Assembly: GCA_048569125.1 (NCBI GenBank)
Contig: CM109057.1
Location: 34,942,381-35,006,380, forward strand
Direction: 5' to 3'
Source of the DNA: Diretmus argenteus
Taxonomy: Eukaryota
Length of the DNA: 64,000 bases
Shown here: positions 35,027-36,544 of the stretch, piece after piece
Layout: each line of letters starts with the position of its first letter
Position numbering within the stretch: position 1 is the first letter of the stretch
The notes under the pieces: model-generated
The model's database searches: none
The model's input: the letters and a program-made list of their open reading frames with translations, nothing else
What the model was told of the DNA's origin: nothing
Program-made: the position numbers and the translations under genes

Positions 35027-36102
35027 GGCAGGCGGACCAAGGCACTCTTTCATTAGATTAAAAAAGCTTTAATATATTGCTTAAGTCATATTAGACTGTC
35101 ACCAACATGTTTCGGCAAACGCCTTCATCAGGGTGATATGGAAACAACTTCACATGGCAAACATTTCAAGGCTCTGCAATTAGCCCTGATTAGCTAGCAG
35201 GTGTGCTGAGACAGAGCTAGTCGATAGCAGAGCTACAGAGCTAGTCTATAGCAGAGCTACAGAGCTAGTCAGTAGCAGTCCATTCCCTCTAGGGGGCAGC
35301 ATCAGATCAGGAAGTTGGCAGTAGATACCATCTACAGTGGATGAAGACACAGTGTGAAAGAGAGCACATATCATGGGGGAACAAAATATATATACATAGT
35401 AAACCTCATCTTCATAAATAAACATAGTAGACATTATATTCATAATCATTATCATATATCACATATAAAAAAGTGGTTTAAGGTAATTATCATAGAAATC
35501 TCATATAAAACCTATAAGAAAGATATCATATCAATGGTGTCATTAAGACCTGGGGGGGACATGGCCTGAAGAGTGTGGATCCAGCGGCTTTCTTTTTGAT
35601 TAAGGGTCTTTTCCCTATCACCTCTTCTGAGGGCTGAAGGAACGTGGTCTATCCCTAACACAGTAAAAGAGACTGAGCTACAACTATGGACTTCCTTAAG
35701 GTGTTTTGCCATGGCATAGTCCATGTTGCCCGATTTGACAGCATATCGGTGTTCAGCAACTCTGTCCTGTAGGCGTCGCTTAGTGCGTCCAACATAAAAG
35801 GCATCACATAAACTACAGCTGAGAATATAAATACAGTGGGTACTTTTGCAATTAAGAAAGTGCCTATTCGTAAACCTCTGCTGAGTAACTGGGTGGATGA
35901 ATTCTTTTCCCTTTGTAATTATGTCACACTGCCTGCAATGGCCACATCTGTATGTACCATTAGGTACAGGAGGAAGCCAAGTGGATCTCGATTCTTTGGC
36001 TGGTGTGTGGCTATGTACCAATCTATCCCCTAGGGTAGGAGCTTTCCTGAAGGAGAAGATAGGGGGGTCTGGAAACACTTGTTGCAAAACCTCGTCACAT
36101 CG
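35027..36102 (-). mobile_element. PLE truncated unit (minus strand): pLTR plus the 3' 575 nt of ORF2 (GIY-YIG domain)
   Basis: Track ORF 35512-36087(-) equals the C-terminal 191 aa of ORF2. The unit ends abruptly at 36102, where a plus-oriented pLTR begins. Confidence 0.85.
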
Positions 36103-36544
36103 GACTGCTACTGACTAGCTCTGTAGCTCTGCTATAGACTAGCTCTGTAGCTCTGCTATCGACTAGCTCTGTCTCAGCACACCTGCTAGCTAATCAGGGC
36201 TAATTGCAGAGCCTTGAAATGTTTGCCATGTGAAGTTGTTTCCATATCACCCTGATGAAGGCGTTTGCCGAAACATGTTGGTGACAGTCTAATATGACTT
36301 AAGCAATATATTAAAGCTTTTTTAATCTAATGAAAGAGTGCCTTGGTCCGCCTGCCTTTTTTAACTTTATTTCCTACATGACCAAAGAGCACCTTTCATC
36401 CTTTTATCTACTCTGAAGCGCCGTAGCCCTCCTTTTGTGTCTTGGCTTTGTCTGCAATTGGGATTTGCCCTGGAGGAGCTCCACAGTTAAGTGTTGTGCG
36501 TTCATGATATAGACTTTGTGGTTTCAACCCACTATTTTTTGACC

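Follow-up and report, generated by a model that had tools for sequence, protein, structure and literature searches.

Self-comparison of the window, the whole 64,000-nucleotide stretch of Diretmus argenteus DNA analysed here, shows on both strands that positions 31293-43903 consist of two opposed arrays of a 3,729-bp unit, and that the spot flagged in the initial annotation is a real meeting point of two opposed, near-identical copies of a Penelope-like element (PLE) which overlap there by four bases. The element is arranged as a partial tandem with pseudo-LTRs (pLTRs). A minus-oriented array of 1.29 units abuts a plus-oriented array of 2.09 units (two units and 344 nt; Table 1), and the orientation of the ORFs places the 5' end of each array at the junction and its 3' end on the outer side. 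The whole complex measures 12,611 bp, about 3.4 units of near-100% identity.

Base-by-base extension carries the inverted match to the plus-strand unit as far as 36105, and the direct tandem match starts at 36102. Because these homologies overlap by 4 nt, the position of the breakpoint is ambiguous from 36101/36102 to 36105/36106, and the single-base resolution claimed in the initial annotation was overstated. The junction sequence that it quoted is found as written at 36080-36125 (...gttgcaaaacctcgtcacatcggac followed by tgctactgactagctctgtagc...), but its split between catcggac and tgctactg corresponds to 36105/36106 and not to 36102, where it had ended the minus-strand unit, a discrepancy of 3 nt. 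Other parts of that description hold. The inversion boundary in our comparison, which is equivalent to the dot-plot suggested earlier, lies at the flagged spot; the GGAC/GTCC microhomology that was to be looked for is present; the join has neither filler nor duplication; and there are no Ns in the window, Ns or an assembly gap at the junction having been the stated concern. Among random head-to-head joins of this 3,729-bp unit an overlap of at least 4 nt is expected in 1.8% (P = 0.018), the mean expectation being about 0.7 nt. At the junction, unit position 2906 abuts unit position 1. GGAC is not a palindrome, and self-comparison reveals no palindrome at the junction, the closest inverted arms being 820 nt apart.

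The join is a true head-to-head (5'-to-5') junction and lies inside ORF2 of the inverted copy, as had been proposed. The breakpoint of the minus copy falls at codon V559 of the 755-aa ORF2, in the linker between the reverse transcriptase (RT) and endonuclease (EN) domains, 53 codons ahead of the CX2CX2C motif and about 90 ahead of GIY, and since it precedes the zinc-finger motif the inverted fragment keeps the whole endonuclease. It is also correct that a pLTR starts next to the junction, although this is true by definition and provides no independent landmark, because the pLTR (unit 1-344) is itself defined by where the plus array starts and ends.

Table 1. Positions, in window coordinates, of the inverted PLE complex, its parts and its target.
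Feature	Position	Strand	Remarks
Minus-oriented PLE array	31293..36105	-	4,813 nt; self-comparison
Minus array, first part	36105-35282	-	unit 2906-3729; read on minus strand
Minus array, second part	35281-31555	-	one full unit, 2-bp deletion; self-comparison
Minus array, third part	31554-31293	-	unit 1-262; self-comparison
Plus-oriented PLE array	36102..43903	+	7,802 nt; self-comparison
Plus array, unit 1	36102-39830	+	self-comparison
Plus array, unit 2	39831-43559	+	self-comparison
Plus array, partial third unit	43560-43903	+	positions 1-344; self-comparison
Head-to-head junction	36102..36105	.	GGAC microhomology common to both arrays; self-comparison
Left TSD copy, TAATAAATTATC	31281..31292	.	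identical 12-mer at right
Right TSD copy, TAATAAATTATC	43904..43915	.	identical 12-mer at left
LINE-like RT ORF (target), left part	29504..31292	+
Target LINE RT ORF, continuation	43916-44633	+
ORF1	36545..37336	+	263 aa from ATG; homologous to N-terminus of single-ORF PLE proteins
ORF1, second plus copy	40274-41065	+
ORF1, minus copy	34047-34838	-
ORF2	37333..39600	+	755 codons; PLE RT motifs, CX2CX2C linker, GIY-YIG
ORF2, second plus copy	41062-43329	+
ORF2, minus copy	31785-32450 and 32422-34050	-	split by 2-bp deletion
Truncated ORF2 of inverted partial unit	35512..36105	-	codons 559-755; linker zinc finger and complete GIY-YIG
Minimal type-I hammerhead motif in pLTR (predicted)	36247..36284	+	38 nt; custom descriptor
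Hammerhead motif, other plus copies	39976-40013 and 43705-43742	+
Hammerhead motif, minus copies	35099-35136 and 31372-31409	-
Stem-loop, unit 229-298	36330..36399	+	18-bp stem, 31-nt loop; folding vs shuffles
82-nt 'tail' (unit 263-344)	43822..43903	+	right outer end only; tail concept: PMC3846280, PMC8557442, PMC11167929
2-bp deletion, AGAG to AG	32447..32450	-	unit about 2833; frameshifts ORF2 of inverted full unit
Sole substitution among copies, CpG site	37183..37183	+	G here and in inverted unit, A at 40912 (unit 2)

The target site provides further insight into how the complex arose. The TSD, TAATAAATTATC, is 12 bp long and 11/12 A/T, with one extra base ambiguous on each side, and the chance expectation for two matching 12-nt flanks is below about 1e-6. 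This sequence does not bracket either array on its own, and positions 36090-36101 and 36106-36117 are unlike it. Excision of 31293-43915, that is the complex and one TSD copy, restores an uninterrupted ORF of 540 aa, in which one continuous RVT_1 match (residues 101-347, E 5.5e-33) runs across the insertion point at about residue 300, and therefore the complex entered a LINE reverse-transcriptase gene in a single event. The 12.6-kb complex is thus one insertion, and the earlier proposal that the junction originated during integration is supported both by the one TSD around the two arrays and by the restored LINE ORF.

The reading frame of the target LINE is itself broken at about 30472-30508. 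In the sequence examined to its right (43916-44773), a (GT)n microsatellite at 44705-44773 lies 3' of the LINE ORF and is possibly the LINE 3' tail. Long minisatellites unrelated to the PLE are present elsewhere in the window at 7680-8712, 16932-17510 and 510-737, with 41-nt units in 21 and 14 copies and also 17/34-nt units.

Judged by its coding sequence, the element is an endonuclease-bearing (EN+) PLE with a C-terminal GIY-YIG domain, and the RT motifs, linker, GIY-YIG motif, hammerhead and homologues agree with the initial assignment. ORF2 is in the -1 frame relative to ORF1 (taken as the +1 frame). Its Pfam matches to RVT_1 and GIY-YIG are weak (E 3e-3 for the latter, below cut-off), but there are 119 homologues, with a best E of 0, in teleosts, amphibians and invertebrates, every one of which carries the PLE-associated Pfam families DUF8422 and HTH_animal; the nearest named ones are uncharacterised teleost proteins. 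A sequence search of the PDB with ORF2 gave no matches. In an alignment with 12 homologues the RT residues ADKG 135-138, PK.HK 213-217, D283, Q340/G343 and IDD 385-387 are invariant and intact, and the linker C612-x2-C615-x2-C618 is invariant in the same 12. The endonuclease motif has two Cys between GIY and YIG (CCHH) and reads CIYILSCSLCDAFYVG...AEH...AKH (GIY…C..C…YVG), with Y651, C655, C658, Y662, G664, R673, H677, H693, E730 and N746 conserved. A CX2-5CxxC linker between RT and EN sets the Neptune/Nematis type apart from Penelope/Poseidon (PMC8557442), and CX2CX2C is a linker of this Neptune/Nematis type.

ORF2 is open from 37168 and the two frames overlap over the region 37168-37336, where an in-frame U UUU UUA slippery heptamer is situated at 37186-37192, 148 nt ahead of the ORF1 stop. 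A relative with 71% amino-acid identity (L001) has the same heptamer at its positions 113-119, 145 nt before the stop, and the 4-nt ORF1/ORF2 overlap is kept in all relatives examined (L002, L006-L010). The heptamer and the overlap together suggest programmed -1 frameshifting, an arrangement that Fig. 1 of PMC8557442 indicates for some PLEs. No stable minimum-free-energy fold was found downstream of the heptamer (z = +2.1).

Each pLTR also holds a predicted minimal hammerhead ribozyme, with the sequence UCACC CUGAUGA A GGCGUUUGCC GAAA CAUG U U/GGUGA. The descriptor has five matches in the window, all of them within the element (5/5 pLTR copies), against 0.005 expected in shuffles. PLE ribozymes are recognised by a short helix I, an unpaired nucleotide 5' of helix II and a small palindromic helix III (PMC4209133), and the motif shows all three traits: its helix I has 5 bp, an unpaired A precedes helix II, and helix III is a palindrome. 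Across four related families 95.5% of cells are paired, compared with 17-49% in slid controls; five pairs change on both sides in compensatory fashion, and the helix III palindrome is ACAUGU in the present element and ACCGGU in L009. Rfam returned no hammerhead match, whether scanned with the whole complex (E <= 1) or with the pLTR alone (E <= 10), its sole matches being to Clostridiales-3, which we regard as spurious. Hammerhead cleavage was considered as the origin of the array ends and discarded, as the predicted site at 178/179 coincides with no end.

Copies within the complex differ at only two sites in 12.6 kb, one substitution (G/A, at unit position 1082) and one deletion. The insertion would appear to be very young, unless polishing has homogenised the copies, and such a near mutation-free copy suggests that the PLE family is active in its host. 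The CG to CA substitution (37183 / 40912) precedes the putative slippery heptamer by 3 nt, which is probably a coincidence arising from methyl-C deamination or an RT G:T error. A 24-nt tandem repeat of 2.8 copies (CTGCTATAGACTAGCTCTGTAGCT), with many CTAG and AGCT palindromes, occupies 36105-36172 and begins 3 nt after the plus-array 5' end; further copies are at 39834-39901, 43563-43630, 31484-31551 and 35211-35278. We see no copies of the PLE family in the window beyond the complex, the hammerhead segment had no match when metagenome contigs were scanned for its exact pattern, and nothing in the protein database exceeds 71% identity.

The outer termini of the two arrays differ, as initially noted, with the left 3' end at unit 262 (...GCCTGCCTTTTTTA, minus strand) and the right at 344 (...GTGTCTTGG), both within the same 82-nt stretch downstream of the hammerhead. 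The stem-loop at unit 229-298 folds better than expected (z = -3.95; 0/200 shuffles fold as well), the centre of its loop is at unit 262, the 3' terminus of the inverted array, and a homologous hairpin is present in L001. A non-coding block upstream of the ORF1 ATG (unit 353-404, 36454-36505; counterpart L001 3063-3115) is 79% identical between the two families, compared with about 68% nucleotide identity in ORF2. Because it begins only 9 nt past the right-hand terminus at position 344, in the 3' direction, this block fits a candidate RT binding site on the RNA which is not itself copied. Comparison of the target 3' ends with the element sequence past the termini found no primer-template homology beyond one ambiguous nucleotide at each end.

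At the other end of the unit, we considered whether transcription starts at unit position 1, but saw no promoter signal that would explain the start of the plus array there. On reading the inter-ORF sequence we found no TATA-like sequence about 30 nt upstream of this position, the nearest being TATATATA at about 100 nt upstream.

In target-primed reverse transcription (TPRT) a target 3'-OH primes cDNA synthesis, and the 3' end of an element shows where this took place. With moderate confidence we favour the explanation that the junction is where two cDNAs met during one PLE integration, both cleaved target strands having acted as primers and the 3' ends of the cDNAs having annealed. In this model, the GIY-YIG endonuclease would cut both strands of an AT-rich site in the LINE, 12 nt apart. 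The top-strand 3'-OH after 31292 (…AAATTATC-3') would prime reverse transcription of a multimeric PLE RNA at unit 262, and the bottom-strand 3'-OH at 43904 (…ATTTATTA-3') would prime at unit 344. The two cDNAs would converge, reaching 1.29 and 2.09 unit lengths, before their complementary 3' ends, ...GGAC-3' and ...GTCC-3', paired over 4 nt, and each would then be extended on the other by an RT template switch or by host repair. The product would have a filler-free 5'-to-5' join, one TSD, and a tail of 82 nt on one side. The geometry, TSD, microhomology and PLE identity can be read directly from the DNA; that cDNA synthesis was primed on RNA at both ends, and which enzyme made the final join, we infer.

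Template switching, the step named in the initial annotation, is to be distinguished from the broader claim that the join stems from one integration. The latter stands, but for the former the junction fits equally well with annealing of two independently primed cDNAs (twin priming followed by fill-in or MMEJ) and with a jump of the RT onto the opposite cDNA. Some observations count against the two-cDNA explanation: an RNA-templated left arm and one copied off the right-arm cDNA look alike in sequence, a single locus stands behind 262 and 344 as RT start sites, the stop of the plus array at unit position 1 has no sequence explanation, and the tail is 82 nt long where 30-40 nt has been reported.

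In an alternative scheme, only the bottom strand is primed on RNA. The 3' GTCC of that cDNA pairs with the GGAC which the same cDNA carries, in unit 1, as the complement of unit 2906-2909; the folded cDNA then copies itself to give the inverted arm, and the top-strand end is joined later. Such pairing is possible, as the plus units have GTCC at positions 2906-2909; the composition of the inverted arm (824 nt, a full unit and a partial pLTR) is that predicted, its length is at most 82 nt below the maximum that this scheme allows, and self-priming has been proposed for PLE inverted repeats (PMC3846280). The present locus resembles that proposal in having a head-to-head inverted repeat inside one TSD. 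However, the proposal rested on palindromic junctions and needs an antisense template in addition, and the junction here is non-palindromic. Moreover, a copy made in this way should pass 344 and continue into an inverted right flank, whereas it stops at 262 beside an intact TSD. At unit position 1082 the inverted full unit also differs from unit 2, its supposed template (G against A), and both this G and the 2-bp deletion of the inverted unit would need later mutation. Nor does such a route make use of the extension of both strands documented in vitro (PMC11167929). Taking these points together, we regard fold-back of a single cDNA as unlikely.

It is most improbable that mis-assembly or over-polishing of a repetitive PLE locus created the arrangement or the number of copies, notwithstanding that such structures often trouble assembly (PMC8557442) and that the near-100% identity of 3.4 units could come from homogenising polishing. 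The window is free of Ns, the perfect TSD and the restored LINE ORF validate the outer boundaries, a 4-nt junction microhomology is biologically typical, the arms have private differences, and the structure is asymmetric (2906 versus 1), unlike a fold-back read chimera. Scarcely credible at all are two separate events, whether the insertion of another PLE beside or within an existing one or the subsequent inversion (or inverted duplication) of a simple tandem. PLEs can use their own pLTRs as targets (PMC11167929), but neither array is bordered by a TSD of its own, a second event would have to land exactly between TSD and element with no base lost, both outer ends lie in the 3'-terminal region expected of primed ends, and the arrays are virtually identical; the TSD geometry renders nested insertion and post-insertion inversion very unlikely.

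The insertion architecture of EN+ PLEs (Penelope/Poseidon, Neptune and Nematis; Evgen'ev & Arkhipova 2005, Arkhipova 2006) has been summarised (PMC8557442, PMC3846280), and the match to inverted PLE multimers asserted in the initial annotation is upheld by comparison with it, there being an inverted 5'-truncated copy beside a partial tandem and a one-sided tail. Features shared with canonical EN+ PLEs are the pLTR-forming partial tandem, the pLTR hammerhead, the AT-rich target, the optional tail at one end, the abutment of the inverted 5'-truncated copy on the upstream pLTR, and a short TSD around the whole complex, which is 12 bp here and 8-10 bp in Adineta. In contrast to the canonical case, the inverted part is 1.29 units long and not just a pLTR, with its breakpoint inside ORF2, the direct part contains two complete units, and the tail is longer (82 nt versus 30-40 nt); the Adineta PLEs have palindromes or a 15-bp overlap where we see a non-palindromic microhomology of 4 nt. 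In the longer contigs of three distant PLE homologues (L003-L005) we found no inverted copies, only direct pLTRs. One of these, L003, has (CCCTAA)n telomere-like runs at 2850-2882 and 3460-3494, upstream of its pLTR, which recall the reverse-complement telomeric repeats of EN-deficient PLEs.

Biochemical work on PAc, a Poseidon element of Anolis carolinensis, allows a closer comparison. In TPRT in vitro, PAc differs from R2 and L1 in that it cuts and extends both strands; it prefers AT-rich ATT targets, and its reverse transcription begins within a stem-loop of the RNA, at two internal sites that lack target homology, the genomic tail being the sequence between the two start sites (PMC11167929). 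The present locus agrees in the apparent use of both target strands as primers, in its AT-rich (ATT) target, and in two putative internal RNA starts downstream of the hammerhead, one of them in a stem-loop and neither with target homology. There are differences as well. PAc has a single ORF and its starts are 111-118 nt inside it, whereas here both termini are upstream of the ORF1 ATG, and there are two ORFs and a CX2CX2C linker of a kind absent from the Penelope/Poseidon clade. The PAc results are also biochemistry, while the locus is a genomic footprint.

A second point of comparison is the twin priming of L1, reportedly described for 5'-inverted L1 insertions by Ostertag and Kazazian in 2001. 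According to the account in PMC2912911 the process shares several features with what we propose here: one TSD, opposed segments joined 5'-to-5', microhomology at the junction, priming by both cleaved target strands, and annealing of the cDNAs after removal of the RNA. In L1, however, microhomology between target and RNA lets the second primer anneal at an internal position of the same RNA, and the segments come from non-overlapping stretches of one unit, whereas here both arms start near the 3' end without target homology, exceed the unit length and overlap in sequence; the enzymes also differ, being a GIY-YIG/PLE RT here and an APE/LINE RT in L1. Of the hallmarks of twin priming, the locus thus has the single TSD, the 5'-to-5' join and the microhomology, and lacks internal target-RNA priming. 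Because at most one ambiguous nucleotide is shared at each target end and the arms cover the same unit sequence, the locus is like twin priming and yet not the L1 process.

A broader proposal is that the insertion may be an in vivo footprint of dual-strand TPRT by a PLE, with starts at 262 (in the conserved stem-loop) and at 344 and with the cDNAs joined by 4-nt annealing, and that twin priming, not self-priming on an antisense template, may be the general origin of the inverted pLTRs and one-sided tail of PLEs. This we put forward tentatively, with belief and doubt nearly in balance and doubt slightly the heavier. Our literature search found no paper that explicitly links PLEs with twin priming.

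The architecture is typical of PLEs and has been described already, so that the locus is a clean example of it rather than a novel kind; what is particular to it is that both arms are long, that the breakpoint lies in ORF2, that the microhomology is non-palindromic, and that preservation is unusually good. The origin of PLE tandem and inverted structures is still undefined (PMC8557442). A single locus does not settle the mechanism and is best taken as a worked example of a known architecture. Most genomic PLE copies are decayed or poorly assembled; here every breakpoint can be read directly because the copy is near mutation-free, the target can be reconstructed, the TSD is perfect and the join is filler-free. 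Its point-by-point agreement with the in vitro behaviour of the Anolis PLE makes it a useful anchor for a genome-wide test of twin priming.
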